A program made the translations under genes and the position numbers. DNA of 64,000 nucleotides. Source: an uncultured bacterium. GTDB taxonomy: Bacteria > Chloroflexota > UBA5177 > JANWHV01. The stretch is from positions 928,001 through 992,000 of the forward strand of contig CAVSOU010000008.1 in NCBI GenBank assembly GCA_963729625.1, in the 5' to 3' direction. Below the pieces are notes generated by a model. It ran no database searches. It was not told the origin of the DNA and saw only the letters and a list, made by a program, of their open reading frames with translations. Shown here piece after piece: positions 8 to 56,246 of this stretch. Numbering within the stretch: position 1 is the first letter of the stretch; each line of letters begins with the position of its first letter.

Positions 8-41
8 ATACTACGCGACCACCATTAGGCTGGCGTGAGCC
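8..41 (-). promoter_or_regulatory. Tandem-repeat promoter element, copy 1 (points off the left edge)
   Basis: Minus strand GGCTCACG-cca-GCCTAATG-gtggtc-gcg-TAGTAT; same spacing as the other copies, distal repeat degenerate. Confidence 0.65.
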
Positions 42-122
42 GGACAGCGCCAGCTGGACAGCTGGCGCTGTCCGCGTTCCCGCGGTCATCGATAACTCCA
101 ACGCCGGTGCGTAACCGCTGCC

Positions 123-1454
123 GTGCACTGCTATACTCACGAGCAACCAGCACAGCACGAGGTGAAAGCGACGAAAGAGCCGGCGCTGCCGTACCAACGG
201 AACATTGGCGAAGATGCCCAAACCCTTCTGGCCGGAAGCAGTACCGCCCCGCTGAGCAAACGGGCCATTGCTGGGTACTGTGCCGCCTCGGTCGGCTCTG
301 GATTTTACTTCGCCTTCAGCAGCGCTGCCCTGCCTCTGCTGATCCCCAGCAGCAACGTGCTTCTCCTCAATCTGATGAGCAACACGCGTTCGATCGAAGG
401 CACGGTGATCCAGCCGTTTATTGGCTCGTGGAGCGATCGCACCTGGACGCGCCTGGGCCGACGCAGGCCGTTCATGGCGGCTGCTCTGCCGCTCAGCGCG
501 TTCTTTCTCGCACTGACTCCGGCGGCACCCGGCCTGCTTGGCATAGTCATGTGCATTGTCCTCTTCTCACTGTTCTTCAATGTGGCCGCCGATCCATACG
601 CCGCGCTGGAGGCCGATATCGCGCCGCCTGCCCAGCGGCCCATCTTGAACGGCATGGCAACGACGGTCACATTCTTCGGCCAAGTCGGGCTCGGGCTGAT
701 CCTGGGATTTGGATCATTTAAGGATCGTCTGCCGTCGTGGACGTACGCGCTGGTGGCTGCGGCACTCATGCTCAGCTGGCTGATCACGATCGGCTCCGTG
801 CACGAGCGGCGAGAGTCGGCGCACATGCAGCAGCACTATAGCTTTCAGATCTATGTACGGGTGCTTCGTGCGCATCGCCAAGCGTTCCGCTGTCTATGCG
901 CATTCTTCTGCTACAGCACTGGCATCAACGTCATCCTGGTGAACCTCACGCCTTACGCGACCCATGTCCTGGGTGTCGGCAAAGGCGAAGCCATCCAGTT
1001 GTTCCTCCTGGTTGTCCTGATGATCGGTCTGGTCACTTTGCCCGCGAGCTGGCTTGCCACGCGGATCGGGATTCGGGCGGTGCTGGCGGCCGGCATGGTG
1101 GTCATGGCCTTCGGTGCGATCGGCGTGCTCATGGCGCATTCCGTTGCCACCGTCATTCCGTGGATCCTGGTTGCGGGGATCGGGTGCGGTGGTGTTTCCG
1201 CACTCACCTGGCCGCTCCTCATGCAGCTCATACCGACGGAGCATGCCGGCGTCTTCGCCGGGCTCAAGACAAGCGCCGAATCGATCTCCGCGTTCTTCTC
1301 GGCCTTCGTGGCCTTCGCCATGATCGGGCTGTGGGGATACAGAAGCATCTTCCTCGCCCTGCTGCTCGCGATTACCGCGAGTCTGGTCGTGCTCCGGACA
1401 ATTCGGGAAAGCGAAGCGGCTCAGGAAGTCGCCGCGGCACTGGCAATCGCCTGA
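123..1454 (+). CDS. MFS transporter (sugar/GPH-like, SLC45/MalT-like)
   Basis: About 12 hydrophobic segments; QPFIGSWSDRTWTRLGRRRPF motif typical of maltose/sucrose-type MFS. True start may be downstream (e.g. GTG 162) because TGCTATACT at 129-137 looks like a -10 box. Confidence 0.85.
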   Translation: MHCYTHEQPAQHEVKATKEPALPYQRNIGEDAQTLLAGSSTAPLSKRAIAGYCAASVGSGFYFAFSSAALPLLIPSSNVLLLNLMSNTRSIEGTVIQPFIGSWSDRTWTRLGRRRPFMAAALPLSAFFLALTPAAPGLLGIVMCIVLFSLFFNVAADPYAALEADIAPPAQRPILNGMATTVTFFGQVGLGLILGFGSFKDRLPSWTYALVAAALMLSWLITIGSVHERRESAHMQQHYSFQIYVRVLRAHRQAFRCLCAFFCYSTGINVILVNLTPYATHVLGVGKGEAIQLFLLVVLMIGLVTLPASWLATRIGIRAVLAAGMVVMAFGAIGVLMAHSVATVIPWILVAGIGCGGVSALTWPLLMQLIPTEHAGVFAGLKTSAESISAFFSAFVAFAMIGLWGYRSIFLALLLAITASLVVLRTIRESEAAQEVAAALAIA

Positions 1455-1554
1455 GCCGGCCAAGGCTATCCCTTGGACCCGCTCCGACCCCTTGTAGTGG
1501 GGGTGCATTCGCGCATGTTGACCGGCCCATGCCTTGCCCTGCAACATGTATCCC

Positions 1555-1588
1555 GCCTAACGCTCGCCTAATGCCTCCGTGCTAGGCT
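1555..1588 (+). promoter_or_regulatory. Tandem-repeat promoter element, copy 2
   Basis: GCCTAACG-ctc-GCCTAATG-cctccg-TGC-TAGGCT upstream of CDS 1728. Confidence 0.85.
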
Positions 1589-1727
1589 TGGCTTAAGTCT
1601 GAGGGCCGCTGTTGACGCACCGGGGGCACCAAGAGCGCGATGCTGCGTGCAGGTCAGTGCCGCCCCATCTTGTCTGCCGTCTGCAGCAGGCGAAGTCGGA
1701 CGAGTCATGCAGGAGGGGGATAGGACG

Positions 1728-3191
1728 ATGTACGGATCGAGCATAGGCAGCAGCGCAAGCTCGGCGCAAGGACCGGCCATCGGGGCGACGATCACGGCAA
1801 TGGTGGCGGGCGCAGGCGCCGCATTGAGCGCCTTCATGCCCTGGATCACGGCGAGCGCCAGCAACCAGAACGGATACTACAGCGCCACGAGCTACTCGTG
1901 GAGTGGCCTGGACGCGACAGTCCTGGACGGCTGGTTCGCGCTCGTGCTTGGCCTGGCAGTGGCGTTGATCGAGCTTGCGGTGCTGGTCCGTGGCCGTGAT
2001 GGAGGGCAAGCCCAGGGCATGGTGGAGGTCGCGCTGGCCGGCCTGCTCATTGCCGTCAGCGCGCGCTATATTGCCGCTGTGTCTGCCGTCAGCGGCGCGA
2101 TCGCCGGCTCTTCGCTGGCATGGCTGAAGAACTACCCATCAATCAGCGTCGGCGCCGGTTTGATTCTGGCACTGATCGCGGCGCTTGTCGTAGCGCTCGC
2201 AGGCTTCACGCGGATACTGGCCGGCGGGAGCGCCGAGGCCCTGCCGACGAGCACGACGTCGCTGGCGATAACGGGCAGGCCTCTGGTTTCAGAGCCGGGA
2301 TTCCTGTCGCAGGATTTCGTGACGGGTGACTTCAGTAGCGTGGCCTTCGCGGGCAATGAACATGGTGCGGCAGTGGGATCGCTCGGCACTCTGGCCTTCA
2401 CACACGACGGCGGCCGGACCTGGATGAGTCGGTTGACCGGTGACGTCACCAGCCTGCAGGCCATCGCCTTTACCGAGGACCAGGTGGGCTGGACGGTCGG
2501 CCGCTCCGGCACCATTCTGCACACCGGCGATGGTGGGAGAACGTGGCAACGCCAGGCAAGCAACGTACGCCAGGAACTGCGAGGTATCGCGTGTGCGAGC
2601 GCGATGGTCGCCTGGGCAGTAGGCGATCTTGGCACAATCGTGCGTACCGTCGACGGCGGAGCGACCTGGATCGTGGCTGAGAGTACGGGCCCAGGCGTGC
2701 TGCGTGCGGTGGCCTGTGCCGGGCCAAGGGTGGCGTGGATCGTGGGCGACGGTGGCACCATCCTCAAGTCAGCGGATGGCGGAGAGACGTGGGTCCCGCA
2801 GCGGAGCGACCTTGACCACAATCTCTGGGGCATAGCGTGCGTCGACGAGAATACGGCGTGGGCCGTGAGTCACCGGGGCACGATACTGTACAGCAGCGAC
2901 GGCGGCTCGACCTGGGTGGCACAGCGATCGGAGACCAGCCAGCCGCTGAACGCGGTGGCGTTCTACGACGCGCTCCACGGCCTGGCAGTCGGTCCCCGAG
3001 GCACGGTTCTCGTCACCACGGACGGCGGGCAGCGCTGGCAGCCGGCGCGGAGTGGCACAGACGTCGAGCTCTATGGCGCCCGCTGGGTAGGCGTCAAGGA
3101 GGCCTGGGTGGCCGGTTCCGCAGGTACGTTGTTGCACACCACCGATGGCGGTTTGACCTCGATGCAGGTACGGGTGCGCGAGTATCAGTGA
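1728..3191 (+). CDS. 4-TM membrane domain (PWITA...SWSG.D..LDGW family) fused to a YCF48/BNR-like beta-propeller
   Basis: ATG 1728 after GGAGGGGG; four hydrophobic helices, then repeated VG..GTIL.T.DGG.TW blades. Confidence 0.8.
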   Translation: MYGSSIGSSASSAQGPAIGATITAMVAGAGAALSAFMPWITASASNQNGYYSATSYSWSGLDATVLDGWFALVLGLAVALIELAVLVRGRDGGQAQGMVEVALAGLLIAVSARYIAAVSAVSGAIAGSSLAWLKNYPSISVGAGLILALIAALVVALAGFTRILAGGSAEALPTSTTSLAITGRPLVSEPGFLSQDFVTGDFSSVAFAGNEHGAAVGSLGTLAFTHDGGRTWMSRLTGDVTSLQAIAFTEDQVGWTVGRSGTILHTGDGGRTWQRQASNVRQELRGIACASAMVAWAVGDLGTIVRTVDGGATWIVAESTGPGVLRAVACAGPRVAWIVGDGGTILKSADGGETWVPQRSDLDHNLWGIACVDENTAWAVSHRGTILYSSDGGSTWVAQRSETSQPLNAVAFYDALHGLAVGPRGTVLVTTDGGQRWQPARSGTDVELYGARWVGVKEAWVAGSAGTLLHTTDGGLTSMQVRVREYQ

Positions 3192-3664
3192 CCTGCTCAC
3201 GTCCGAAGAGTGAAGTGACCCTTCTCGGCTTGCAGGGCCGACCACACAGTCGCTCTCGGAATCCCGGTTACATGGGTCGGGATGCCAGAGTGACTTTGTT
3301 GGCGGCAACGGCGCCAATCCGGGTGGGTGCTGGACCTGGATCCTGAAGGGCACCGCGGACTACTACGGCGCTGGCGGGCACGGCTTCGTCATTTGCGGCG
3401 GCTGAGCATCGGCATTCGCAGGGGAGCCGACGGAACGCCGGTCGTTACGCCGCTTGGCGATGCGCCGCGAGGCTAGAGTGGCGTGAGCGGGATTTGAAGG
3501 GCCGAGGGAGAGTGAGCGATGAGCTGCTGGAGAAGATGAGTGCTTCCGACGGGACTGGCTTTGGCATTGCTCGCCCCACTTGGCCGGACGGGCTGCGTAG
3601 CCTCGAGTCAGCTCACCGCATCAGAGCTTGCGGGCGTTGTTCAGCTTCAATGGGAGGACGTAGC

Positions 3665-4696
3665 GTGGGCACTTGGATTGCAGGCCTGGCAACTGCCGCG
3701 AGTCTATTGGTAACGAGCCTGGCTCCGCTGGGAAGCATTGCGGTGGTAGCAACTTCGGCCGCCGTCTCGCCTAACTTCACCTTCTTCTCTCTTCCAGGTC
3801 GCAGCTCCCCTCGATTCGTGGAGCGCGGAGCAGACGGGAGTATCTGGTTTGCCACGGACAGAGGTATGGGGCGCGTAACGCCTGCCGGCCGGATTATCGA
3901 ATACGCCGCACCAGCCGGCGAGCCGATCTTCGAGGTGGGTGGGATCACGGCAGGTCCGCTTGGCAGAATATGGTTCACAGACGATCGTCTCTCGATTGGC
4001 TGGATAGCGCCGTCCGGTGCGATGGGAGAGTTTCCACTGCCCCAAACTGTCGGGTATGGTCGGCTTGGCGGCATCGCTGCCGGGCGCGACGGCAATCTCT
4101 GGTTTACCGAGGTGGACCTCGGGCGTATTGGCCGGATGTCGCCGACAGGCACAATTCATGAGTTCTCGGTCCGCGGCACTCCACCGACGGACATTCAGGC
4201 GACATCCAACGGAACTGTCTGGTTCGCTAGCTCCTACGACAATATGGTGGGGACCATCGACGGCAACGGCCGCGTGCGCACGTACCGCCTGCCTAGGACA
4301 TTTGCGTGGGGAGGCGGGGGGCCGCAAGCCATAGCGGCCGATGCGAAAGGCAATCTGTGGTTTAGTATGCCCAACACCGGCGGCGAAGGCGGCGGGCCAG
4401 GAAGTCTGCCAGAGGGCGGAGGGATCGGAAGGATCGATTGGGCAGGCCATGTGCTACTGTTTCCGACGCAGGGCATGTATCCGTCCTGCATCGCCGTCGA
4501 CCACCAGGCCAATGTCTGGTTCGGGTCCTTCCGGCGCAACGTCTTGGGACGAATGACGGCTAACGGGACGCTCGAATCATACGCACTCCCGGGAAAGGAG
4601 AGTACCGTCACTGACCTCACAGTGGGCGGCGACGGCAGCATCTGGTTTGCCGATATGGAGAATAACCGCATAGGACGCTTCAGACCATCGCAGTGA
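3665..4696 (+). CDS. Secreted virginiamycin B lyase (Vgb)-like beta-propeller
   Basis: GGAGG then GTG 3665; signal-peptide-like N-terminus; repeated G.DG.(I/L)WFT...IGR blades. Confidence 0.75.
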   Translation: MGTWIAGLATAASLLVTSLAPLGSIAVVATSAAVSPNFTFFSLPGRSSPRFVERGADGSIWFATDRGMGRVTPAGRIIEYAAPAGEPIFEVGGITAGPLGRIWFTDDRLSIGWIAPSGAMGEFPLPQTVGYGRLGGIAAGRDGNLWFTEVDLGRIGRMSPTGTIHEFSVRGTPPTDIQATSNGTVWFASSYDNMVGTIDGNGRVRTYRLPRTFAWGGGGPQAIAADAKGNLWFSMPNTGGEGGGPGSLPEGGGIGRIDWAGHVLLFPTQGMYPSCIAVDHQANVWFGSFRRNVLGRMTANGTLESYALPGKESTVTDLTVGGDGSIWFADMENNRIGRFRPSQ

Positions 4697-4877: not shown

Positions 4878-4911
4878 AGCTAATGGCGGCCTAATGCTCA
4901 GGTGCTAGGAT
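4878..4911 (+). promoter_or_regulatory. Tandem-repeat promoter element, copy 3
   Basis: AGCTAATG-gcg-GCCTAATG-ctcagg-TGC-TAGGAT upstream of CDS 5157. Confidence 0.85.
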
Positions 4912-5156: not shown

Positions 5157-8100
5157 GTGAATGTACTGAGCCGCCGATGCTGCTCTGCCGCACTGCTGTT
5201 GCTCACGCTGGTCCAACCGACCTTCGACTATGCGCACTCAGCCGTGGCAGCAAGCGGCAACGCAGCCAGCGACCTACGCGTCTCGCGCGGCTCACTCGTT
5301 GCTGGTGACTCGACCTGGTCTGTTCAGAACTCCGGGTCGCGAGAATCTCTGATGGGCGTGAGCTGCCGCACCAAGGGAGACTGCGTAGCCGTAGGCACGA
5401 ACGGTGCCATTCTGACCAGCTCCGATGGCGGAGCTTCATGGACCGGCAGGACGTCGGGCACAAGCCGTACGCTGCTTGGCGTGAGCTGCCCGACTCCCAG
5501 CACCTGTGTTGCCGTCGGTGACGCAGGCACCGTCTTGACCAGCTCCGATGGCGGACTACGCTGGGTGAGCCAGACCTCAGCCACCAGCAGGGCCCTGTTC
5601 GCCGTTAGCTGTCCTGACGCGAGTATCTGCGTCGCCGTGGGCAATAGCGGCGTCATCCTGACCAGCGCGAATGGAGGCGCCAGCTGGACAAGCCACGCCT
5701 CAGGCACGACCAATCAGTTCACTGGTGTCAGTTGCCCAAGCATCAACGACTGTGTGGCTGTGAGCGGGATCGGCACCATCGCAACGAGCCGAGACGGTGG
5801 CACGACCTGGGCGAGTCGGACGATCAGCGCCGGCTCGAGCGTGTTGGCCGTCAGTTGCATCAGTGTTAGCGCCTGCGTGGCGGTTGGTAATAGCGGAACG
5901 ATTCTGACAAGCAAAGATATTGGCGCAACCTGGACACGCCGGGCCTCAAGCACCACCGCGTTGCTCCGTGGGGTCACCTGCGCTAGCGACGGCGCCTGCG
6001 CCGCGGCAGGTTATGGCGGCACCCTGCTCCTCAGCATCGACGGTGGAGCGACCTGGACCCGCCGATTGTCGGGTACCGGCAACGATCTGGAAGCTGCCAG
6101 CTGCCTAAACAAGACTTCCTGCGTGATCGTGGGCGGCAAGGGCACCATCCTGCAAAGTCATGCTTCGGCTATCTCGCAGCCAAGTTCGCACAGCGTGGCA
6201 CGAGTTGCCAAGGGCATGGCCTGGATCGCGCGATCTTCAGGTACCCTGCATGGCCTACAGAACGTGGTCTGCCCGACTACCAAGCACTGTGTAGCAGTCG
6301 GCGGATGGGGAACCGTTATCAGTGACGATGGGGGTACCACTTGGGCAGCTGCTCGTGGCGGTGGCAACGCCAATGGCGTCAGTTGTCCGAGCATAGAGAT
6401 GTGCGTTGCCGTAGGCGGTAGCGGCCTGATCCATACCACTAACAATGGTGGCCGTACTTGGCACGAAAGCCGGATCAGGGAGGGAAGCAATCTGTACGGC
6501 GTAAGCTGTCCGACGGCCAGGGACTGTGTTGCCGTCGGCGAGATAGCTATGCAAGTTCTTGTCGAGACCAGCGGTGACGGCGGGAGCACCTGGACTCCGC
6601 AGCGACTCGCTCAGGGTGTCGGCGCTGTAGCGGTGAGCTGTGTCAGCACCGGCCTGTGCGTTGCGGTCGGCGGCGCCCCACACGGCAGTCCTGAACGACG
6701 AGCGATTCTTACCTCGGATGACCGAGGTAGCGCCTGGGCTATTCAGTATTTGGGCATCGGCTCCACGCTGTGGGGCGTCACATGCTTGAGTACCGGCTCG
6801 TGCATTGCGGTTGGTGACGGTGGCACCATTCTGACCAGCAGCGACCGCGGTAGGACTTGGACCAGCCGTGCTTCGGGCACGACCAAGTGGTTGCAAGGGG
6901 TAAGTTGTGGCAGCGCGACCTGGTGCGTCGCCGTTGGCGAAACTGGCTCGATTCTGAGCAGCGCCGATGGTGGAGCGACCTGGACGCACCAAAACTCGGG
7001 CTCAGGCCGCGATTTGTTCAGAGTCAGCTGCCCGAGCAGCAGCCTTTGTGTGGCCGTCGGCCAGAGCGACACGATTCTCCAAGGTCGCGCAGCGAGCAGT
7101 ATCACCACGCCCGCTCCCCTCACGTCTAACCAGCAACGTCTGGCCAAGGCGATCGGTCAGTACGCGACCATGCTCGATGCCGCCTTCGTCCAGATCGAGG
7201 GCGTCACCAAGGAGCTGGGACGCGAAGGACAGTATTACCGTGACCAGGTGCACGCTGACCAGTACAAGGTGTGGACCAGCATTGGCCAGGCCGCGATCGA
7301 CACGTGTATCGCCGGCTGGGGCGCGATCGACGGTCATACCAGCTCAGACATCCTCGCTCGGCTTACCAGCGTTTCCACGGACTTCGGCATGGGCTATGCC
7401 AAGAAAGCCAGTATAGAATCCCTCTCGACAGCGTTGGTTCGACGCCTGGCCGATCACTCGCTTGACGATCAAGCGGGAATCATCGCCAGTATTTTCGATC
7501 GATCGCTACGACCTGCCCTCGACAAGGACCTCGCGCAACTGAAGCACAACCCGCCCGATCTCTCCACCAGCGATACCGATGCCGCAATTCACGCTCTGCA
7601 GATGCGGGAGGACGCGCTCGGCTGGATCGGCATTCGGCAGCCCGATGGTAGCGCGGCGATCCTCCAGGAAGCATTCTATAAGCAAGGGAGCTCGCACGTC
7701 GGCGCGGACCTGGTCAGTGATCTCTGGCAGACGGCCGCGCCCCTCATGGCCGATGCGCTCGTGCCGGGTAGCGGCGTCGTGGCGTCCGCGCTGATCGGCT
7801 TATGGAACACGGCCGTAGCACAGCAGAAGCTTACGGCCGACGAGCAGGTGGTGGCAGAATATCAGCTAGCCCTGCTCTCCATGGAAACGTACGCTAGCCG
7901 CGTGCACGATGCGGCGACTCTGGTCATTGGCAGCCTGCGAGCAAAGCCGGTGGTCGTCGGCAAGCTGCTCTCAGGCACTTTGGGCAATCTGCAGATTACG
8001 GACAAGCGCACGGCGCCGACACGCACGAATCACGACGGCACGCTGCGCGAGCATCTGAACCTCACGGTTGAGAACGCCAGCCCAGCCACGCCGTTTCACC

Positions 8101-9831: not shown

Positions 9832-9836
9832 CGAGC

Positions 9837-10561: not shown

Positions 10562-11617
10562 GTGTACGAGGAAGCGGAGCAGGTCCACAAGGCACATCGC
10601 GATTACTACCTTCGACTCGCCGAGCGGGCCAGCAAGTCGCTGCTGACCAGGGAACACGAGGCATGGCTCGCCCAGCTTGCCGCCGACGACGGTAACCTGC
10701 GCGCGGCACTGGAGTGGAGCAAGGATCAGCCTGACAGTGGCGATACCCTCACGCGGCTTTCCACTGCCTTGACGACCTACTGGGAGTTCACGGGCCGCAT
10801 GAGCGAAGGCCGGAAGTGGAGTGAAGAGGCCCTCGCAAGGTCGTCGGCGTCCGAAGAGCGTGTCCGATCGCTCGTAGCCGCGTCACGGCTTGTGATGGCA
10901 GTTGAAGATTTCGAGACCGCCGGCGCTATGCTCGACGAGAGCATGGCCTTGGCGCTGGCAAACGACGATGCATACGGCGAAGCGGAGACGTACTCGCATC
11001 GGGGGTATCTCGCCCTTACGAGACACGATCTGCCGGCATCGATAGAAGCCCATACGTCCGGCCTCGCGCGATGGCGGGCATTGGGTCTCGACGACCACGT
11101 CGCCGACTCGCTCACCTGTCTTGGCATGAACACGCTTCTCCTGGGCGACGTCCCACGGGCGATTGCGTATCTCGAAGAGAGCCTCGCGCTCTGCCGTCGA
11201 AGCAGCACGCGATTCTACCTCGCGGATGCGCTCCTCGCGCTCGGGTTTGCCCGGTTCCTGAGCGGGGATCCAGCGGCCGGGGTGCACCTGCTGGCTGAAG
11301 GCATGCAGGTGGCACAGGCCCTGAGCGCGGTGCAGCTTGTCGCCCGGGCTCTGGAAGAGTTTGCCTTTGTCGCGGGGATGACCGGCGACGCGGGGCGAGC
11401 GGCCCAACTGCTGGGTGCCGCACAGGCATATCGCGAACGGATCAACGTGCCGATGCCGCGCGCGTACCACGACCTTTATCAGCAACTGCTCGGCACACTG
11501 CAGGCGCAGATGGGGGCCGCCGCGCTTGACGAGGCGATCGCGCACGGACGGACGCTCACTATTGAGCAGGCAATGACCCTGGCGCTGGCATTCGGCGGAG
11601 CAAGCGACCAGGCGTGA
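10562..11617 (+). pseudogene. Orphan C-terminal TPR half of an AfsR-like NB-ARC (STAND) regulator
   Basis: Begins at HRDYYLRLAE...WLAQLAADDGNLRAALEW, the segment that normally follows NB-ARC/winged helix; TPR helices; ends RAAQLLGAA...GRTLTIEQAM; no N-terminal domains upstream. Confidence 0.75.
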
Positions 11618-11661: not shown

Positions 11662-11695
11662 AACTAATGGCCGGCTAATGGCTGCCTGCTAGAAT
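11662..11695 (+). promoter_or_regulatory. Tandem-repeat promoter element, copy 4
   Basis: AACTAATG-gcc-GGCTAATG-gctgcc-TGC-TAGAAT upstream of CDS 11868. Confidence 0.8.
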
Positions 11696-21683: not shown

Positions 21684-21717
21684 AGCATAACACGATGCCA
21701 TTAGGTGACCATTAGGC
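21684..21717 (-). promoter_or_regulatory. Tandem-repeat promoter element, copy 5
   Basis: Minus strand GCCTAATG-gtc-ACCTAATG-gcatcg-TGT-TATGCT upstream of pbpC-A2M. Confidence 0.85.
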
Positions 21718-24421: not shown

Positions 24422-24455
24422 AGCATAGCAGCCAAGCATTAGGCGGGCATTAGGC
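24422..24455 (-). promoter_or_regulatory. Tandem-repeat promoter element, copy 6
   Basis: Minus strand GCCTAATG-ccc-GCCTAATG-cttggc-TGC-TATGCT upstream of CDS 24330. Confidence 0.88.
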
Positions 24456-25690: not shown

Positions 25691-25724
25691 GCCTAACGCC
25701 GGCCTAATGGCACGGTGCTATAGT
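25691..25724 (+). promoter_or_regulatory. Tandem-repeat promoter element, copy 7
   Basis: GCCTAACG-ccg-GCCTAATG-gcacgg-TGC-TATAGT upstream of CDS 25824. Confidence 0.88.
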
Positions 25725-28277: not shown

Positions 28278-28311
28278 AGCATAGCAGCACGCCATTAGGC
28301 CGGCATTAGGC
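28278..28311 (-). promoter_or_regulatory. Tandem-repeat promoter element, copy 8
   Basis: Minus strand GCCTAATG-ccg-GCCTAATG-gcgtgc-TGC-TATGCT upstream of CDS 28203. Confidence 0.88.
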
Positions 28312-31594: not shown

Positions 31595-31628
31595 AGGCTA
31601 ACAGACCGCCATTAGGCCGGCATTAGGC
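31595..31628 (-). promoter_or_regulatory. Tandem-repeat promoter element, copy 9
   Basis: Minus strand GCCTAATG-ccg-GCCTAATG-gcggtc-TGT-TAGCCT, starting 2 bp after the stop of CDS 31631. Confidence 0.88.
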
Positions 31629-36804: not shown

Positions 36805-36838
36805 ATCCTAGCACCCGAGCATTAGGCCGGCGTTAGGC
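36805..36838 (-). promoter_or_regulatory. Tandem-repeat promoter element, copy 10
   Basis: Minus strand GCCTAACG-ccg-GCCTAATG-ctcggg-TGC-TAGGAT upstream of CDS 36589. Confidence 0.88.
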
Positions 36839-37564: not shown

Positions 37565-37597
37565 ATACTGGCACGCGAGCATAGGCCGGCGTTAGCC
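37565..37597 (-). promoter_or_regulatory. Tandem-repeat promoter element, copy 11 (degenerate, 1-nt deletion)
   Basis: Minus strand GGCTAACG-ccg-GCCTATG-ctcgcg-TGC-CAGTAT upstream of CDS 37485. Confidence 0.65.
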
Positions 37598-45400: not shown

Positions 45401-45483
45401 CTCCAGTTGTCACTTTGCTTAGCCGAAGTAGCTGTATCGGTGATTGCTGCACCGTGAACGCGTCCTGCGCTCCAATCGGGCAC

Positions 45484-45517
45484 AGCATAGCAGCCTAGCA
45501 TTAGGCGAGCGTTAGGC
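45484..45517 (-). promoter_or_regulatory. Tandem-repeat promoter element, copy 12
   Basis: Minus strand GCCTAACG-ctc-GCCTAATG-ctaggc-TGC-TATGCT upstream of CDS 45400. Confidence 0.88.
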
Positions 45518-45857: not shown

Positions 45858-45891
45858 GCCTAACGGCTGCCTAATGCCTCCGCGCTATAGT
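45858..45891 (+). promoter_or_regulatory. Tandem-repeat promoter element, copy 13
   Basis: GCCTAACG-gct-GCCTAATG-cctccg-CGC-TATAGT upstream of CDS 45953. Confidence 0.88.
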
Positions 45892-45952
45892 AGTCTTCAG
45901 CTTGGTCGTACGGACCAAGGTTGGGCTGTAGTGTCGAGCAAGGAAACTGAGC

Positions 45953-47813: not shown

Positions 47814-48090
47814 GAGCGGGGCACGGCTGTGCAGGCTGCGCCGTTTAGCGACAGCGAACATAGCGTCGCCTTGGGCCGTTGCGCGACTCCGCGTTGACGG
47901 GCTCTCGATACATCGCCCTACAAGAGCCTTGACATAGAGAGAGTCGGATCAGGTCCAGACGCGCCGGCGTGGAAGTAGCTGGACCAGCTACAAGCAGGCA
48001 ACGAGGTGGACGGCTATGCGAGCGATGTGCGAGCCGTACTTCCTCGCCCCGGCATCGACGCCAGCGCCGCGATGCAAGGCGGGCTCACCG

Positions 48091-48210
48091 CCGGCCAGCG
48101 ATTCAGCATGCTCATATGGTTCACCGACTGGCATCTCTCGGGGGAGCCGTCCACCACGTTCAGGGTCTGAGAACGGCAAGCCGACCCCAGGGATACTCGA
48201 CGGCCCGCGA
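48091..48210 (+). repeat. Diverged dispersed repeat, copy A (copy B at 50052-50172)
   Basis: Shared core CACCGACTGGCATCTCTCGGG...TCCACCACGT; colinear over about 120 bp. Confidence 0.75.
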
Positions 48211-48212
48211 TG

Positions 48213-49525: not shown

Positions 49526-50051
49526 GTCTGGTCCCTTGCCCGGTTACGGCTCGGCGCGGTGACCTCACCGGACCTGGCGTGCGCCCGACTCGATTGCCCA
49601 AGTGACGCCGACCGCATCGCCGAGACGGTGATGCCTCGGTCCGCTGCCCGCGCGATGTGCCCAACGTGACATCGCTGGGCCGCCCCCCAGCCGCAGCACG
49701 AACTGGCCGCGAGAGCGTCCTCCAGCCCGCATTGTGCACTTCGAGCGGTCGGCGTTGCTGAGATTTGCGGCCCCCCGGGCCAGGCCATGCGCATGCAGCT
49801 ACGTGCCGGTACGAAGCCAAGCAGCACGCGCAGCCGGCCGAAAGAGGCATTGGTCACATGTGTCGGGAGCAACGGACTCGAATGTTTGCCCGCGCATCAT
49901 TCTCAACTCCGAATCTCTATCGAGGCTGAAGCTATGCAGAATCTTCCCGAGCGCGGCCGGTCGCTTCCTGCCCGCGTGGTCGTCGCCCCCGCCCGCGGCC
50001 CGGTTCAGCTCGAGCGCTCCGGCAACGATCCGGCCCAGCGACTCGTCCGCT

Positions 50052-50172
50052 CCGGCCAGCGCTTCAACGTGCACGTCTGATCCACCGACTGGCATCTCTC
50101 GGGCGTCTTGTCCACCACGTACGGTGTCCGAAAACGGCAGGCCAGCCTGCAGGGGCGAACGGCGGCCCGCAA
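50052..50172 (+). repeat. Diverged dispersed repeat, copy B
   Basis: See copy A; both read on + as stop-interrupted GQRF....(W/*).TDWHLSG..STT..V. Confidence 0.75.
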
Positions 50173-50395
50173 CGAAGTCGCGCATGCCTTACTCGGACAG
50201 GCAATCGGTGGTGGGCTGGCCCGCGTGGCACCCGGAGCATGCCGCTGGGCGTCGTCTCGAGCTTGACGCAGTTCCCCGCGCGGCCGCATCCTCGAGTCTG
50301 ACGCGACCAATGCGCAATGAAGCCGATGCCGCGCTCCGGCGATCGACGTCACCCACGACTTCGGGACGTCGGTGCGGCGGGTGACCGGAGCGCAG

Positions 50396-50743
50396 ATGAC
50401 TTCCACCCAGGATCCCATCGCCGCCGGAAGGCCATTGCTGCACGACGGCAACCTGATCGCCCGCGCGGGCGCGGATCTCGCTGCCCGCTTCCAGCTCGCA
50501 GACCGGCTGATCGTCGTGTCCGGCAGTGGCGACATCCTGCACCTGCCTCGGGCGGTCTGCGATCTCGCCGGGCAGGCCGTAGACAGGGCATGCGAAGCAT
50601 TCCAGCGCATGAGCCTGGTGAGCAACGAGCAGATCACGCGCTACTACGAGTGCTTCGCCGCGCACCTCGCACCGGACGACATCTGGACGGCGATCGCCGC
50701 GCTATGTCGTTGTCGCTTCGGGGATGAATCGGCGGCTACCTAG
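50396..50743 (+). pseudogene. Possible N-terminal fragment of a variant gamma-glutamyl phosphate reductase (ProA-like)
   Basis: LAARFQLADRLIVVSGSGDILHLP...AFQRM..VSNEQI..YY..FAAHL..DDIW..I recalls the extended N-terminus of some ProA proteins; recognised from memory only. Confidence 0.4.
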
Positions 50744-50810
50744 CTACGCCGCTCAGCCATTGCTGCCTGACGCGTACTGTCACAACCACGCCACGTGGAG
50801 TCCTGCTGCT

Positions 50811-52307
50811 TCAACTGGTCGTCGTGTCCTGGCAGCTCCAGCTATAGGGATCGTTGATGTCGCCCACCACGGCCGTCGCGTTCATGTCCGCGAACTGCCA
50901 CTGGCAGGCCTCGTTCACATCGATATCCTCCCGATCGCCGTTGCTGTCGATGCAATGCCAGTCGTAGGCCGTCGAGCCGTCGAGACTGGCGCCCTGTCCG
51001 CCCAGATACTGGCAGTAGCCGTTGAGGTCCAGCGTTCCCAGGTTCGTGCCGGACGTCCCGCTGGATTGGCCCGAGGATGAACCGTCCTCCCATGTCACCT
51101 GCACCGGGTCCGACTGGGCGACCACGTTGCCGTCCACATCCGCGATCTGCGCCACGAAGCTGTCCGTGCCGGCGGCGTCGGCCTCCGCCGGGCCGGAACA
51201 GCTTTCGCCGCTACCGCACCCCGCGATCTGCATGCCGGTGCCCTGGTCGAGGATGACGATGTAGTACGGTGTCGGCCAGACGTCCTGGCTCGCCTGCGCC
51301 GTGAAATTGACGGTGTCACCGGCCTGCACGTCCGTCTGGTCCGCGCTCAGCGTCACGGTCCAGTCCCCGCCATCGTTGCCCTCGTCCGAGCTGCCTACCC
51401 AGGTGATCTGTTGCGGCGAGGACTGGGCCACGACGTTCCCCGACAAATCGGAGACCTCGGCCACATACGATGCGGAGTCCGTGCCGTCGAACGGAATCTC
51501 GGCGGTGCACGCGCTGCCATCCCCGCAGGTCTCCACGGCTTCGCCGCTCGACTGGTCGGTAATCACGATATAGAACGGGGTGAATGCCACATCCAGGCTC
51601 GCATCGGCTGTGAGGTTCACGGTTGTCCCCGCCGGCACGTTGGATGGATCGGAGGCATCCGTGGTGAGGCTGACGGACCAGAGATACGCCGTGTCGTCGA
51701 AGCCAGGTAAGTGGTTGTCAAAGTAGTCGTTAGGACGGCCAAGCGACAGGCTGGCCACCGGATCGTCCGGCAGAACGGCGCCGTAGGTTTGCAAGATCTT
51801 AACTGCTTTCGTCAAGCAGTCGTTCGCGGCCACAGTCGGATGGTGGAGCAGGTCCAGTATCCAGAACCCGCTCGTAGCTTGCTTGCCGACCTCCGTCTCC
51901 GCGTCAGTTACGTCCGCCTTCGGCGGTTTACCGCAGCGGTACTGAAGGTACGCGATACTGGCCGGCCTGCCGTAGGGACTTCCATTCGCGAACGTCTGCA
52001 AAAGGTCATTCCACGAGCCGTGCCTCTCCCAACTGTGTGTCCAGTCCCAACTTGGGTTCGGCTCATACTGCTTAGGATTGTTGTTGTTGGCCTCGGTGCT
52101 GCCGAAAGCCCAATCATTCTCGCCGTCAGCAAAGGCCCAGCCGACGTGCCCAAGGTCGTACACGTCATTCGGCGCATCGATCATGCAGACTCTGGCCCAT
52201 GAAGGGGCGGAACTCGCTGCTCGCGCACGATGGCTGGAAGGGGTTGTGAGCCCGACCAGCCCGGCAAGCACGAGCGCCCACCGGATGCACGCCAATATCC
52301 TTGCCAT
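50811..52307 (-). CDS. Secreted acidic protein with two Ig-like domains and a C-terminal Cys-containing domain
   Basis: GGGAGGGAG then ATG 52307; signal peptide; two W.V.L..D...V.AG.TV..TA.AS.DV..TP.YIVI.DQ..G.....CG.G..C repeats. Confidence 0.75.
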   Translation of the reverse strand: MARILACIRWALVLAGLVGLTTPSSHRARAASSAPSWARVCMIDAPNDVYDLGHVGWAFADGENDWAFGSTEANNNNPKQYEPNPSWDWTHSWERHGSWNDLLQTFANGSPYGRPASIAYLQYRCGKPPKADVTDAETEVGKQATSGFWILDLLHHPTVAANDCLTKAVKILQTYGAVLPDDPVASLSLGRPNDYFDNHLPGFDDTAYLWSVSLTTDASDPSNVPAGTTVNLTADASLDVAFTPFYIVITDQSSGEAVETCGDGSACTAEIPFDGTDSASYVAEVSDLSGNVVAQSSPQQITWVGSSDEGNDGGDWTVTLSADQTDVQAGDTVNFTAQASQDVWPTPYYIVILDQGTGMQIAGCGSGESCSGPAEADAAGTDSFVAQIADVDGNVVAQSDPVQVTWEDGSSSGQSSGTSGTNLGTLDLNGYCQYLGGQGASLDGSTAYDWHCIDSNGDREDIDVNEACQWQFADMNATAVVGDINDPYSWSCQDTTTS

Positions 52308-52391
52308 GCGTTTGCTCCCTCCCAGCCTGACGAGTGATGTTGCTGCCACGTTTTTCTTCGTCTGGACCCCTTCTGGCACGGCAGTGGGCAA

Positions 52392-53147
52392 TTACTGCTC
52401 CTTCGGCGGCGCCGGCCAGCTACTGCTCTGATCTGAGCTCGCCCGCCCAGATCCGACGGAGCGCGGATGCAGCAGGTGCTCCATCTCATCCTGGCTGAGG
52501 GCGCCGCTCGGTCTGCCCATCCATGGCTGCATGGGGCCCGACGCTGAGCCGCCGGCATCCTCGGGCGGCCGTGGCCAGCCGGCCGTGCCTCCCCAAGACT
52601 GCGCGGAGCCGCTCGGCTGCCACGCATGTGCCTGCTGTAGCACCCACGCGTCGCCCGTGACGAGACGCGCGAAGCCAGCCACGGCGAGCACGATGGCCGC
52701 TGCCAGCATCAGCCACAGCCCGGCGCCTGCGCCGATCGACACGTAGCCGCGCAGCCACTGCAGCGCCGAGCTGCTACTCACCGCGGACACGGCGGCGATG
52801 TTGCGCGCGCTGACGGCGATCAGCACCGCCGCTGCCAGGATATCGCCGATGCCCTGGGCCTGGCGGACCTCGCTGCAACGTATGAGAGCCGCCAGCCCGA
52901 TCAGCGCCACGGCGCCGCCCAGTGCGGGGGCATACCAGCCGTCGAGGATCTGACCGTCGAAGCCGCTCCACGAGAAGCTGGTGGTGGTGGTATAGCCATT
53001 GGCGTCCTGGTAGCTGGTCTGCGCGGTGATCCAGGGCAGGAATGCGCAGATCGCCGCGATCACACCTGCCGCCAACGCCGTGATCGTCGGCAACAACGCT
53101 ACCTCCGTCTGGGTGGACGGGACATCGTACGCGCTGCGTGCCTCCAT
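52392..53147 (-). CDS. 4-TM membrane protein (PWITA...LDGWY family) with a low-complexity tail
   Basis: GGAGGAGGGGG then ATG 53147; aligns by eye with three paralogs in the window. Confidence 0.8.
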   Translation of the reverse strand: MEARSAYDVPSTQTEVALLPTITALAAGVIAAICAFLPWITAQTSYQDANGYTTTTSFSWSGFDGQILDGWYAPALGGAVALIGLAALIRCSEVRQAQGIGDILAAAVLIAVSARNIAAVSAVSSSSALQWLRGYVSIGAGAGLWLMLAAAIVLAVAGFARLVTGDAWVLQQAHAWQPSGSAQSWGGTAGWPRPPEDAGGSASGPMQPWMGRPSGALSQDEMEHLLHPRSVGSGRASSDQSSSWPAPPKEQ

Positions 53148-53290
53148 TGTCTTTCCCCCTCCTCCCGCCGCGCGCGGCAGGCGCATCGCTACCGCCGGCT
53201 CGCCAGAGCCCCGGTCCATGCATGCGGCCAACCGACCCAGCTTGGGCAAAGTACGGCGTGTCCGCGCGCCGGGTCACTGATGACACGCCC

Positions 53291-53324
53291 ATCCTAGCAG
53301 CCGAACATTAGGCGGACATTAGGC
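53291..53324 (-). promoter_or_regulatory. Tandem-repeat promoter element, copy 14
   Basis: Minus strand GCCTAATG-tcc-GCCTAATG-ttcggc-TGC-TAGGAT upstream of CDS 53147, divergent from the SARP regulator. Confidence 0.88.
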
Positions 53325-53346
53325 GTACCAAGATAGCCGCACTAGC

Positions 53347-53380
53347 CTCATATGCGCGCCGTACGGACCTCTGCTACACT
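53347..53380 (+). promoter_or_regulatory. Degenerate copy of the element facing the SARP regulator gene
   Basis: CTCATATG-cgc-GCCGTACG-gacctc-TGC-TACACT: same spacing and extended -10; proximal repeat 6/8 and distal repeat 4/8 match. Confidence 0.4.
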
Positions 53381-53416
53381 GTCCCGCAGCAAGCCCGATG
53401 CGCCTGGAGGCGGGTA

Positions 53417-55894
53417 GTGTCGAGGGGTCAGGAGCCACGAGCACGTGTCCACGGGAAGCAACGCCGGGCCGATCCGGCGCGCGGATCCGGTCGCGACACA
53501 TCGAAGCTTGCCGTGGGCGCGGATCCGATTTCCGCGCAGCATGCCCTGCCCGTGCTCCACGTGCGGACGCTCGGCGGGTTTTCGCTACTGCGTGGTGAAG
53601 AGTCGCTCATAACCGAGGCGTGGCGCGGTGATCGGCTCTGGCCGCTCTTCACCGGCCTGCTCAGTGCAAGCAACCACCGGCTCAGCCGGGACCAGGCAAT
53701 CGAGCTTCTCTGGCCGGATAAGGAGCTGGCGGACCCGGCGAACAGCCTGCGCGAAGTACTGAGCAAGCTTCGTCGGCTGCTGGCCGGCGGCTCCTCGGCG
53801 CCAACTCAGGCCTATGTGCGGAGCGACGGTGCATTCCTGGTCCTGGTGTCCGGTGCGGTGCTGATCGATGCCGATATGTTTCTTGCGGAGGCGCAAAGGG
53901 CATCGGCTACCCGGGACCTGACGGCATGCCAGACAGCGATCGATCTGTATGCCGGCGAGTACCTGCCGCAGGGGACAGTCGAACCGCTCTCCCGGCACGC
54001 CGCACTCGTGCGCGGACGTCGGAGTGCCTTGCGCCATGCCGCGAGCGACGTGCTCGCCCTGGCCGCCGAGCTCTGCGATGGAACGGACCTACGTCGTGCC
54101 GCCGCGTATTTGCAACGTGCATTCGGGCTGAATCCCAGCGCCGAGGAGAAGGCGCGCCGGCTCATGACCACGTATGCGCGCATTGGCGAGCTCGCGGCCG
54201 CGCAGGAGGTGTTCGGCACGCTGACACGCACGCTCGCGCACCAGGGCGTGCCGCCGAGCCTGGAGACAACCCGGCTGCGCGACTCGCTGCTGGAAAAAAG
54301 CGCACCTCGCGGCACCTTGCCCCAGGAGGGCCAGGCCCCGGCAGGCTTGCTCACCTGCCTGGTCGTGCTCGGAGACGGAGCGACTCCCGCCCCTGTGGAA
54401 GCCGTCGTAGCTGCGCACCACGGGAGCAGCGCCGATGCGGACCCCACGGATCGGTGCTGGCGCTTCAGCTTCTCCGATCCACATGAGGCCCTCGCCGCCG
54501 CCTTGACGCTCACCTCGCCCCCGCCCTCCGCTGCCATTCCCCGTGGCATGCGCGCCGCTGTCCATACCGGGCAAACCGGATATCGGCCTGAGCACGATGC
54601 GGGCTTCGCGCTGGCCAAGATGCTTGCCGAGATTGCACACGCCGGACAGGCATTGGTGTCGCACGTGACGTATGCGGTCGCAGGCGCCTCGCTGCCGGCA
54701 CACATGGCACTGCCCAGGCTTGATTCCTATGAGCTGCCCTACAGCTCGGAGCCGGTTGCCGTCTACCAGCTCAGCAAAGCGAACTCGGTCGTCACCTACC
54801 CGCCGCTGCGAGCACGTCGTCACCGGCCGCATAATCTGCCGGCTCCGATCACGGCCTACGTGGCGCGGCCGCGACTTCAGGCAAGGCTCGGCGCGCTGAT
54901 CGCTCCCGCCGCGGGACGCAGCACCCGACTGTTAACGCTGACCGGCGTGGGCGGCGGCGGCAAGACGCGCCTGGCAGTGGAGCTGGCGCGTGACCTGCTG
55001 CCGCGGTTTCCCGACGGCGTCTGGCTGGTCGAGCTCGCCTCGCTGTCCGAGCCGCGCGATGTGCCGGCACAGATCGCGCGCGTGCTCGGCCTGCGTGAGG
55101 AGCGCGGCGTTCCGATAATGGATTCCGTTGCCGCCTATCTGCGCGCCCGCGAGCAGCCCTTGCTGCTGGTGCTCGACAACTGCGAGCATCTGGTGGACGC
55201 ATGCGCTCAAGCCACGGCGGTGTTGCTCCAGGCCGGCGAGCTGGTCCACGTGCTGGCCACCAGTCGCGAACGGCTGCGCATGCAAGGTGAGCGCGCCGAA
55301 GAGGTGCCGCTTCTGTCGACGCCAATCCCGCGCGACGGCGGCTTTCCGCTCGCGGATATCGGCGGGGCGGAGTCCGTCCGGCTATTCTGCACGCGCTCCA
55401 CGGAAAGCGTGCCCGACTTTGCGCTGTCCGCCGCGAACGCGCAGGCTACTGCCCGCATCTGTGCACGGCTCGATGGGATCCCGCTGGCTATCGAGCTCGC
55501 GGCGGCGCAGCTTGTCCGCCTGCCCCTCACGGAGATTGTGGATGGCCTTGACCGCTCCATCGGGCTGTTGGCCGGCGGCAATACCGGCGCCTTGCCCCGG
55601 CACCAGACGCTTCACGCGGCGATCGACTGGAGCTATCGGCTGCTCAGTGCGGACGCGCAAACCTTATTCCGGAGACTCGCGGTCTTCGCCGGAGGCTGGA
55701 CGGCCCCCGCCGCTCAGGAAGTGTGCGGACTGAGAGGCCTCCATCCGGACGACGTCGGGCCGCTACTGCAGGAGCTCCTCCTGGCGTCGCTCGCGATCCG
55801 CTACAAGGCCGGTGACCAGCATCGCTACCGTATGCTCGAGCCCGTGCGACAATATGCCCTGGGTCAGCTCCATGGTCAGCTCGACACCGCTTGA
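53417..55894 (+). CDS. AfsR/SARP-family regulator: winged-helix, BTAD, degenerate cyclase-like domain and NB-ARC ATPase; C-terminal TPRs missing
   Basis: VRTLGGF, LSRDQAIELLWPD, LREVLSKLRRLL, AIDLYAGEYL; MRAAVHTG; HNLPAPIT, TLTGVGGGGKTRLA, LVLDNCEHL, LATSRE, LDGIPLAIELAA, YRMLEPVRQYA. Confidence 0.9.
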   Translation: MSRGQEPRARVHGKQRRADPARGSGRDTSKLAVGADPISAQHALPVLHVRTLGGFSLLRGEESLITEAWRGDRLWPLFTGLLSASNHRLSRDQAIELLWPDKELADPANSLREVLSKLRRLLAGGSSAPTQAYVRSDGAFLVLVSGAVLIDADMFLAEAQRASATRDLTACQTAIDLYAGEYLPQGTVEPLSRHAALVRGRRSALRHAASDVLALAAELCDGTDLRRAAAYLQRAFGLNPSAEEKARRLMTTYARIGELAAAQEVFGTLTRTLAHQGVPPSLETTRLRDSLLEKSAPRGTLPQEGQAPAGLLTCLVVLGDGATPAPVEAVVAAHHGSSADADPTDRCWRFSFSDPHEALAAALTLTSPPPSAAIPRGMRAAVHTGQTGYRPEHDAGFALAKMLAEIAHAGQALVSHVTYAVAGASLPAHMALPRLDSYELPYSSEPVAVYQLSKANSVVTYPPLRARRHRPHNLPAPITAYVARPRLQARLGALIAPAAGRSTRLLTLTGVGGGGKTRLAVELARDLLPRFPDGVWLVELASLSEPRDVPAQIARVLGLREERGVPIMDSVAAYLRAREQPLLLVLDNCEHLVDACAQATAVLLQAGELVHVLATSRERLRMQGERAEEVPLLSTPIPRDGGFPLADIGGAESVRLFCTRSTESVPDFALSAANAQATARICARLDGIPLAIELAAAQLVRLPLTEIVDGLDRSIGLLAGGNTGALPRHQTLHAAIDWSYRLLSADAQTLFRRLAVFAGGWTAPAAQEVCGLRGLHPDDVGPLLQELLLASLAIRYKAGDQHRYRMLEPVRQYALGQLHGQLDTA

Positions 55895-56039
55895 TGCCCA
55901 CGAGTTGCATGCGCCCAGTGGCGCCTACGATCGGCTCTCCGGAAGACGCGAAGAAAGGAGCGCACGCAAGACCGGCCGTGTTCCATAGCGCGCTGGCGGC
56001 GACCATGCGCGAGCGGGTCGCAAATGAGCAGAGGTTCGG

Positions 56040-56190
56040 GTGGTACGGCGTGAGCAGTGAAGCGCGACAGGTGCACGTGGCGCACCGCGACTACTACCTC
56101 CGGCCCGCCGAGGAGGCCCTCGCGGCGAGGCAAAGCGAGCTGCAGGAGCAATGGCTGGCACCGCTCGCGGCAGAAGACGGCATCATGAAG
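56040..56190 (+). pseudogene. Detached short continuation of the SARP/NB-ARC regulator
   Basis: EARQVHVAHRDYYLRPAEEA...EQWLAPLAAEDG, homologous to the start of 10562-11617, then breaks off. Confidence 0.7.
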
Positions 56191-56212
56191 GACGTGCCGG
56201 CCTGTGGGTTCC

Positions 56213-56246
56213 GCCTAACGCCCACCTAACGTCCCGCTGCTATAAT
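56213..56246 (+). promoter_or_regulatory. Tandem-repeat promoter element, copy 15
   Basis: GCCTAACG-ccc-ACCTAACG-tcccgc-TGC-TATAAT (perfect -10) upstream of the kinase. Confidence 0.9.

Follow-up and report, generated by a model that had tools for sequence, protein, structure and literature searches.

The stretch of DNA analysed here (the window, 64,000 nt, C8:928,001-992,000) lies on contig C8 of a 5.41 Mb genome assembly of 21 contigs, 87% complete; the host bacterium is probably a member of the Chloroflexota, i.e. outside the phylum where SARP regulators are studied. Coordinates below that carry a contig name (C7, C8 or C13) refer to this assembly and all others to the window. The subject is a 34-bp intergenic element in which two direct repeats precede a -10-like hexamer, here called the direct-repeat (DR) promoter. 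A preliminary description, made from the letters of the window, had listed 15 copies and proposed that a single activator of the SARP/OmpR type acts on them. From the sites, a 38-nt position weight matrix (PWM) was made and run over both strands of the genome. It retrieved 22 sites scoring from 37.8 to 57.0, which we call strong sites; the next one scored 12.8 (copy 8-) and everything else 8 or less. Of the strong sites, 21 are located in C8:926,856-1,020,260, 13 of them within the window, and one at C13:1925. Their consensus is GCCTAAYG-N3-GCCTAATG-N6-TG(C/T)-TAnnnT.

The DR promoters of the window and their genes

The copies found in the window are given below with the open reading frames (ORFs) behind them, which are on the same strand.

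1555..1588, + strand: DR promoter, GCCTAACG-CTC-GCCTAATG-N6-TGC-TAGGCT, PWM 49.1, 58 nt to the ORF; behind it, genes for a 514-aa protein with 4 transmembrane segments and a BNR propeller (1647-3191) and for a Vgb-lyase-like propeller (3494-4696)
4878..4911, + strand: DR promoter, PWM 44.1; behind it, a 1393-aa BNR/Ycf48-like protein (5157-9338), a small ORF and an orphan TPR tail (10562-11617)
11662..11695, + strand: DR promoter with weaker repeats, ACTAATG and GGCTAATG, hexamer TAGAAT, PWM 39.3; behind it, a 360-aa unknown membrane or secreted protein (11757-12839)
21684..21717, - strand: DR promoter, PWM 47.7; behind it, PBP1C (19089-21623) and a bacterial alpha-2-macroglobulin (13241-18961)
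24422..24455, - strand: DR promoter with the top PWM score, 57.0; behind it, a Zn-ribbon membrane protein (23896-24435, with a later start) and a 231-aa protein of the 4-transmembrane-segment module (23173-23868)
25691..25724, + strand: DR promoter, PWM 47.6; then an unknown protein of 262-320 aa (ending at 26786/26790)
28278..28311, - strand: DR promoter, PWM 53.3; then a 208-aa PD40/WD40-like secreted protein (27577-28203)
31595..31628, - strand: DR promoter, PWM 43.5; behind it, a Zn-ribbon protein (31050-31595, with a later start), a permease-like protein with 7 transmembrane segments (30318-31037) and a 652-aa secreted protein (28367-30325)
36805..36838, - strand: DR promoter, PWM 50.3; behind it, unknown secreted proteins of 638 aa and 439 aa and a DUF459/GDSL protein (together 31631-36589)
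37565..37597, - strand: degenerate copy with a 1-nt deletion in repeat 2 and hexamer CAGTAT, not found by the PWM; behind it, a 196-aa secreted protein (36895-37485)
45484..45517, - strand: DR promoter, PWM 55.3; behind it, a 482-aa PD40-like protein, a DUF3160 protein (837 aa) and a Kelch protein (1080 aa) (together 37609-45400)
45858..45891, + strand: DR promoter, the sole site with CG in place of TG, divergent from 45484-, PWM 37.8; behind it, a 519-aa secreted protein (45953-47512)
53291..53324, - strand: DR promoter divergent from the SARP gene, PWM 49.1; behind it, a 285-aa protein of the 4-transmembrane-segment module, a 526-aa secreted protein, more ORFs and a Zn-ribbon/BNR protein (together 48014-53249)
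56213..56246, + strand: DR promoter, hexamer TATAAT, PWM 44.6; behind it, a Ser/Thr kinase with NHL repeats (56336-58303), an NHL fragment and an FHA-ABC transporter (58973-61420)
8..41, - strand: degenerate copy GGCTCACG-CCA-GCCTAATG..GCG-TAGTAT, PWM 12.8, pointing out of the window to a 301-aa ORF

Thirteen of the 15 copies first listed were thus recovered as strong sites at their original positions, and the other two, 8- and 37565-, proved degenerate.

Conservation and spacing of the element

When at most 2 mismatches were allowed, GCCTAAYG-N3-GCCTAATG matched the window 13 times against 0.05 expected, and none of 100 shuffles reached 13. The geometry was the same in 22/22 strong sites: the repeat starts are exactly 11 bp apart, with N3 between the repeats, and the distance from the end of repeat 2 to the TAnnnT hexamer is 9 nt. 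The invariant spacing announced in the preliminary description was therefore borne out, together with the 1-nt deletion that it reported for one copy, which is 37565-. The hexamer was TATGCT in 8 sites, TAGGAT in 4, TATACT, TAGGCT and TATAGT in 2 each, and TATAAT, TAGAAT, TAGCCT and TATGGT in one each. That it always resembles a -10 box is true of the 22 strong sites; copy 37565- departs from it. An extended -10 TG precedes the hexamer in 21 of the 22 sites (TGC in 18, TGT in 3), the remaining site having CGC. The position 17 nt upstream of the hexamer, where a -35 box would be placed, reads AYGNNN, i.e. the -35 is weak or absent. If the hexamer is taken as -12 to -7, the box, counted in 11-bp units, ends 6 nt before it and spans -40 to -19. 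A consensus scan for canonical -35/-10 pairs in the 14 kb from 44000 to 58000 found none, for 1.9 expected, and Rfam gave no match in the window at gathering score.

The information profile showed GCCTAAYG conserved and N3 variable in both units; as first described, the spacers vary freely, and neither they nor the flanks carry information. Comparison of the island DNA with itself revealed no similarity between promoter-bearing segments. Since spacers and flanks diverge and these segments do not match each other, the likeness of the promoters must have been maintained and does not stem from recent duplication. The C13 site is a case apart: the segment C13:1-4963 matches C8:1,018,336-1,023,309, promoter included, with 94.4% identity, so that its site is not independent. 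The segment may have been truly duplicated, or it may come from a variant strain that was assembled together with the genome. Because the two copies are 99% identical around the promoter, the pair is uninformative on constraint.

Placement of the sites and products of the genes

Genes were called with a codon-usage log-odds model, the training set being long ORFs on other contigs. Coding sequence makes up 84% of the island that contains the C8 sites (see below), but none of the strong sites is in the interior of a confidently called gene. Where a site does overlap an ORF, the overlap is either with the 5' end of a maximal-length ORF that also has start codons further in, or with a relic ORF of 112 aa. 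A same-strand ORF start was found ahead of 13/13 strong sites of the window, at a distance of at most 277 nt, and within 300 nt of 18 of the 21 C8 sites. Two sites are severed from their same-strand gene by an insertion sequence (IS) element, namely C8:926,856(-), by one with a DDE transposase, and C8:1,016,396(+), by one with an IS4-like transposase. Site C8:997,264(+) has a short ORF next to it, then an ISAZ013-type element. Apart from these exceptions, every strong site faces an ORF start, in agreement with the earlier statement that the copies point into the 5' ends of genes.

Co-directional genes were tallied from each site to the next site or strand switch, a procedure from which the operon extents are inferred. 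The figure of about 25 genes initially put forward turned out to be an underestimate, as some 46 co-directional genes stand behind the 21 strong C8 sites. As had been claimed, the motif does head most units of the island. It is missing from a small number, namely those of an MFS gene, of the SARP gene, of two toxin-antitoxin-like pairs and of the IS elements. One of these pairs is RelE/RelB-like (61923-62492, - strand); the other is a small unnamed two-gene unit (24721-25648, - strand), for which PIN-like is a guess.

Most gene products have a signal peptide or transmembrane segments. The propellers comprise BNR/Ycf48-like, NHL, Kelch, PD40 and Vgb-lyase-like proteins; to them are added Zn-ribbon membrane proteins, the alpha-2-macroglobulin/PBP1C pair, DUF3160, DUF459/GDSL and GH3 proteins, two FHA-ABC transporters and two Ser/Thr kinases. 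When 20 unknown proteins of the island were run against NCBIfam, hardly any received a name. The alpha-2-macroglobulin/PBP1C pair (13241-21623) is a second copy, with 67-71% DNA identity to the pair at C7:470,577-478,511. That core pair is found in all four same-genus genomes and is without the motif; only the island copy has a DR promoter. A module of about 200 aa with about 4 transmembrane segments is common to the N-termini of five island proteins, at 37-55% identity (52392-53249, 1647-3191, 23173-23868 and 62883-64010 in the window, and L002:1065-1976). A search of the four same-genus genomes did not find this module, and no Pfam or NCBIfam family matched it.

The island and its distribution

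An intact tRNA-Gly(CCC) gene lies at C8:920,041-920,114. A repeat of about 75 nt, running from the anticodon loop of this tRNA to its 3' end and about 32 nt beyond, is present with 1 mismatch at C8:~1,027,950-1,028,025. Together they bracket about 108 kb in which all the C8 motif sites and both SARP genes are included. A flanking tRNA-Gly and a repeat of its 3' part, which make the ends of the island att-like, are the signature of integration into a tRNA gene. Profiles for tyrosine and serine recombinases (PF00589, PF00239) gave no match in the island. Four IS elements are found there (C8:925,366-926,403; 998,947-1,001,318; 1,009,462-1,010,630; 1,016,850-1,018,202), one of which, of the IS3 type, splits a string of NHL/Zn-ribbon genes. 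Just inside the left end is a Ser/Thr kinase pseudogene, with fragments in different frames (C8:920,604-921,540, - strand).

Comparisons were made with a set of 40 relatives, 4 of the same genus, a count that takes in the unpublished genome G018. The left flank of the island is syntenic in 4/4 same-genus genomes; since the right flank is on another contig or was not found, an empty site is not demonstrable in them. In one of these genomes, G001, partial 3' copies of tRNA-Gly are present on its contig C16 (1,188,570-1,188,693 and 1,194,281-1,194,323), which suggests that integration has recurred at this tRNA. In 70 kb of C16 round these copies, and in 20 kb beside the tRNA-Gly on C5, there was no sign of a DR-promoter family. 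The four same-genus genomes lack most of the island genes. The 285-aa protein behind 53291- has 4 paralogues, all within the island, and none in these genomes, the DUF3160 protein has no real counterpart there, and positions 32000-51999 matched them only over short pieces of repeat domains.

The preliminary description had advised that the PWM be run over the whole genome and its relatives. Strong sites were confined to the island and its C13 copy, and the full motif was matched in none of the 40 relatives, those of the same genus included. It was likewise absent from the public collections scanned, i.e. one genome per species of GTDB and the JGI metagenome contigs. The N-terminus of P0001, the SARP protein described below, has no homologue in any of the 40 relatives either; from these sequence comparisons, the regulator and the motif sites would seem to travel together. 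A search of sequencing runs for the locus listed no RNA run and a single DNA run, in which 6% of the sampled words occurred. Profiles for WhiB and Omp85 gave no match in the genome (87% complete), the WhiB positive control having matched Corynebacterium only. Another genome of the same phylum, a single contig of 1.5 Mb, had 27 matches to reductive dehalogenases, as is typical of Dehalococcoides, and on these grounds the host is placed, as probable, in the Chloroflexota.

The candidate regulators

The gene divergent from site 53291- codes for a SARP-type protein, which the preliminary description had not noticed, and two other features of the window are related to it.

53417..55894, + strand: P0001, candidate activator, 825 aa, with a predicted SARP domain (OmpR-type winged helix-turn-helix (wHTH) and BTAD), a cyclase-like middle part, an NB-ARC/STAND ATPase and no TPR
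55891..56229, + strand: frameshifted remnant of the activator gene's STAND-to-TPR linker, which runs up to the DR promoter 56213+
10562..11617, + strand: orphan TPR tail ORF, beginning at the linker motif (..VH.AHRDYYL..) where the P0001 gene is cut off

The BTAD of P0001 (PF03704, aa 161-292) scored 37.9 bits against a cut-off of 22.1 in Pfam; the match to Trans_reg_C was weak (E 0.036), and the ATPase was matched by AAA_22 (33.8 bits) and weakly by NB-ARC. An AF2 model of aa 40-310, built from 16 homologues, had a pLDDT of 90.6. Its top PDB matches in Foldseek were AfsR in its transcription complex (8HVR_I, 8K60; E 7.5e-9 to 1e-8, TM-score 0.65-0.70). EmbR was matched as well, the alignments with the AfsR SARP domain and EmbR covering 254-269 columns at TM-scores of 0.62-0.70. 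The family profile of P0001 gave E 8.9e-46 with full-length AfsR and 8.7e-20 with EmbR. The model of aa 295-825 (pLDDT 85.6) had Apaf-1, plant NLRs and MalT as best matches over the ATPase. Over its first ~170 residues, a cyclase-like region was indicated by a single fold match, the adenylyl cyclase MA1120 (4wp9_A, 168 columns, target TM-score 0.72, rank 45); Pfam reported no cyclase match in P0001.

P0001 is without a C-terminal TPR: it ends at aa 825, where many paralogues run on into TPRs. The linker motif of the orphan TPR ORF and the relic behind the P0001 gene are 77% identical over 60 nt, 45 kb apart. Judging from these remnants, P0001 seems to have lost its TPR sensor, and the free TPR fragment may be co-expressed from a motif-headed unit. 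The upstream region of the P0001 gene has TGCTACACT at 53372-53380, the extended -10 form of the regulon, with no repeats. The sole close homologue, P0003, is also of 825 aa, with 63% identity in the SARP region and an identical recognition helix. A search with the P0001 and P0003 alignment otherwise brought only relatives at 27-39% (Ktedonobacteraceae, Chloroflexia, Solirubrobacterales and others), and in the alignment of 16 distant homologues conservation was nowhere sufficient for a scan query.

Among the 11 BTAD matches of the genome is a second island SARP, located outside the window (C8:1,025,481-1,026,905). This 474-aa protein has a wHTH, a BTAD and a middle domain, no ATPase, and is 31% identical to aa 44-467 of P0001. 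At the positions of AfsR T88 and R92, a hand alignment placed E113 and K117 in P0001, Y113 and R117 in the paralogue. No gene with a sigma70_r2 match was found in the island (15 in the genome, the nearest at C8:764,783). A full OmpR-type response regulator was not found there either, the 9 genes with a strong Trans_reg_C match (E <1e-23) being all outside C8:920-1,034 kb. An island sigma factor and an island regulator of the OmpR type were both rejected on these counts.

A generic scan was also carried out for the same 7- or 8-mer occurring twice with an 11-bp period, followed after 7-10 nt by TAnnnT. In the genome itself it gave 149 matches in register, 56 of them in the island, and no second recurrent family. 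Only singletons were obtained from the loci of 13 distant homologues and 8 paralogues. One of them, GTTTTGC-N4-ATTTTGC, with an 11-bp period and 10 nt to TAAGAT, comes directly after a distant SARP-like gene in a metagenome-assembled genome of the Ktedonobacteraceae (L035:7800-7845, + strand, of contig DATGGW010000371.1); from its sequence, it is possible that this is a SARP box in another Chloroflexota lineage.

Proposed mechanism and alternatives

The regulon is real and very clean, and its mechanistic kind is already known; its novelty lies in the repeat sequence and the size, in a cargo that is not biosynthetic, in the mobile context and in the phylum of the host. We think it fairly probable that the 34-bp elements act as SARP-type promoters, read by sigma-A and dependent on an activator encoded on the island, the likeliest being P0001. 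The SARP/OmpR-type activator initially suggested is supported by the box geometry, by the predicted SARP fold of P0001 and by the want of an island sigma-70 or OmpR-type regulator. The proposed scheme is as follows. Two SARP-domain protomers, most likely those of the 825-aa SARP-cyclase-like-STAND protein P0001, would bind the two 11-bp units next to each other, on the same face of the DNA. Within each unit, the 8 bases GCCTAAYG would be contacted and 3 left free, the box covering about -40 to -19. The bound protomers would substitute for the missing -35 and recruit or adapt RNA polymerase, which would itself read the extended -10 (TG-n-TAnnnT). Through about 21 transcription units, one regulator, possibly under the control of the island Ser/Thr kinases, could in this way switch on some 46 genes, mostly for secreted or membrane propeller, Zn-ribbon and envelope proteins, the whole regulon being carried by the ~108-kb island integrated at tRNA-Gly.

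Several points weigh against this scheme. The gap between repeat and hexamer is 9 nt, versus the 8 bp quoted for SARPs, a discrepancy whose weight depends on how the repeats are delimited. The strong extended -10 could give activator-independent transcription, in which case the repeats might modulate and not enable it. The P0001 gene has no motif upstream, and the paralogue ends a motif-headed gene string. The two SARP paralogues have different recognition helices, and the sequence cannot tell which of them binds. Finally, the coding DNA of P0003, sought for co-variation of the box, was not located in the JGI metagenome contigs.

The same mechanism would operate if the 474-aa paralogue were the binder, with positive feedback, P0001 then having another target or an upstream role. 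The paralogue has the required wHTH and BTAD, besides its middle domain and its 31% identity to P0001, and is the last gene of a string headed by the strong site C8:1,020,260, co-directional with FHA-ABC, Zn-ribbon and kinase genes. Against it are a coding score that is low for a protein of 474 aa (52.5, versus 149.6 for P0001), the fact that it was missed by the first, GC3-based, gene call, and its place at the edge of the island; we regard it as an unlikely binder. The repeats could also be pho-box-like sites for a protein of the OmpR/PhoB family, or for another DNA-binding protein, encoded elsewhere in the chromosome. PhoB/PhoP boxes are also made of 11-bp direct-repeat units in place of a -35, and the 9 full Trans_reg_C proteins outside the island are potential binders. 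None of these is within 180 kb of it, and the sites are confined to an island that the same-genus relatives lack, which argues against a regulator of the core genome, since such a regulator would be expected to have core-genome sites too. This makes a chromosomal binder improbable.

An opposite role for the repeats would be that of an operator: a protein binding in tandem, whether a SARP or not, would sit at -40 to -19 and repress extended -10 promoters that are otherwise constitutive. This accords with the presence of TG-n-TAnnnT in 21/22 sites and of TGCTACACT without repeats ahead of the P0001 gene. Extended -10 promoters can indeed work without a -35. The invariant phase of the repeats relative to the -10 (22/22) is nevertheless what recruitment needs, and occlusion would tolerate a variable spacing. 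In addition, published SARPs, as portrayed in passages of PMC10936776 and PMC10972967, activate from exactly this position, and repression appears quite improbable to us. An island-restricted type of promoter would also fit a dedicated, island-specific sigma factor reading CCTAAT as a -35. This is very improbable, as the island lacks a gene of the sigma-70 family, the copies of CCTAAT stand 10 or 21 nt from the hexamer, which fits no -35/-10 spacing, and the TG-extended -10 resembles that of housekeeping promoters. The preferred scheme, that of a SARP-type activator, is least threatened by the idea that the elements are recombination or mobile-element junctions, such as cassette sites or miniature repeats, and not promoters. 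The island does look like a mobile element, with its tRNA-Gly flank repeat and its several IS elements. The repeats, however, are direct and not inverted, the sites are always oriented towards a gene start on either strand, and the flanks share no similarity. Such junctions, hardly credible on these grounds, were rejected because the island has no tyrosine or serine recombinase.

Significance and comparison with known systems

Nearly all work on SARPs concerns their role in switching on antibiotic clusters of Streptomyces. A passage of a 2024 review presents them as exclusive to actinobacteria (PMC10972967). Among the papers listed in literature searches, none deals with a SARP regulon of Chloroflexota, and the titles listed by a full-text search for the repeat GCCTAATG, 10 of 12, were unrelated. 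The promoter grammar of SARPs is here unusually pure, with 22 sites, no background in the genome and an invariant spacing. If the binding proposed above is true, the 'sigma adaptation' of the AfsR type works with a non-actinobacterial RNA polymerase, an orthogonal activator/promoter pair with the box GCCTAAYG is available, and a mobile island can bring a private regulon and leave the host network untouched. A broader picture, which we put forward tentatively and would not bet on, is that of a self-contained, horizontally acquired regulatory island. A TPR-less SARP-cyclase-STAND switch, with its own Ser/Thr kinases, FHA transporters and about 21 custom-wired promoters, might there allow one signal to deploy some 46 secreted or envelope proteins, a spare alpha-2-macroglobulin/PBP1C pair included, in a member of the Chloroflexota. 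It would then be the first SARP regulon outside the Actinomycetota and the largest cluster-situated one, unrelated to antibiotic synthesis.

Three known systems can be set beside this one. The pho boxes of PhoB and PhoP are 11-bp units bound head-to-tail by winged-helix domains; unlike in these systems, the island has no receiver-domain regulator, and the one found combines BTAD and STAND. PimR, a SARP-LAL regulator of Streptomyces natalensis, resembles P0001 in its SARP domain, its large ATPase and, possibly, its cyclase-like region, and is described in parts of PMC3367932 and PMC5930380 as binding heptameric direct repeats. The present system differs in having two repeats at -40 to -19 on about 21 promoters, and the likeness has to be read with the reservation that the cyclase-like fold of P0001 depends on one Foldseek match (4wp9_A, rank 45).

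AfsR and its afs box, at the afsS promoter of Streptomyces coelicolor, together with other SARP promoters, offer a further parallel. According to passages of PMC10936776, SARP targets are direct repeats 11 or 22 bp apart, the 3' repeat being 8 bp from the -10, and the AfsR protomer touches the first 8 bp of the 11-bp unit and not the last 3. The same passages place the afs box at -40 to -19, where the AfsR dimer takes over from sigma region 4, which would otherwise recognise the -35. Repeat units of 11 bp, with 8 conserved and 3 free positions, are common to the DR promoters and to the SARP promoters, as far as the latter are described in portions of PMC10936776, PMC11301090 and PMC10972967. 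If the hexamer is at -12 to -7, the box would also overlap the -35 and spacer (-40..-19), next to the -10, as the afs box does (PMC10936776, in part). P0001 shares with AfsR the OmpR-type DNA-binding domain, the BTAD and the STAND/NOD ATPase, and has Ser/Thr kinase genes in its neighbourhood, in the way that AfsR has AfsK. The differences lie in the repeat, which is GCCTAAYG here, in the 9-nt gap versus the 8 bp quoted in PMC10936776 (same passages), in the strong extended -10, to be contrasted with the poor -10 of the afsS promoter, and in P0001 itself, which lacks the TPR of AfsR and seems to have a cyclase-like insert. Unlike the AfsR/SARP systems, with their biosynthetic clusters, the present one has 21-22 promoters and a secreted or envelope cargo, in a host that is probably a member of the Chloroflexota.

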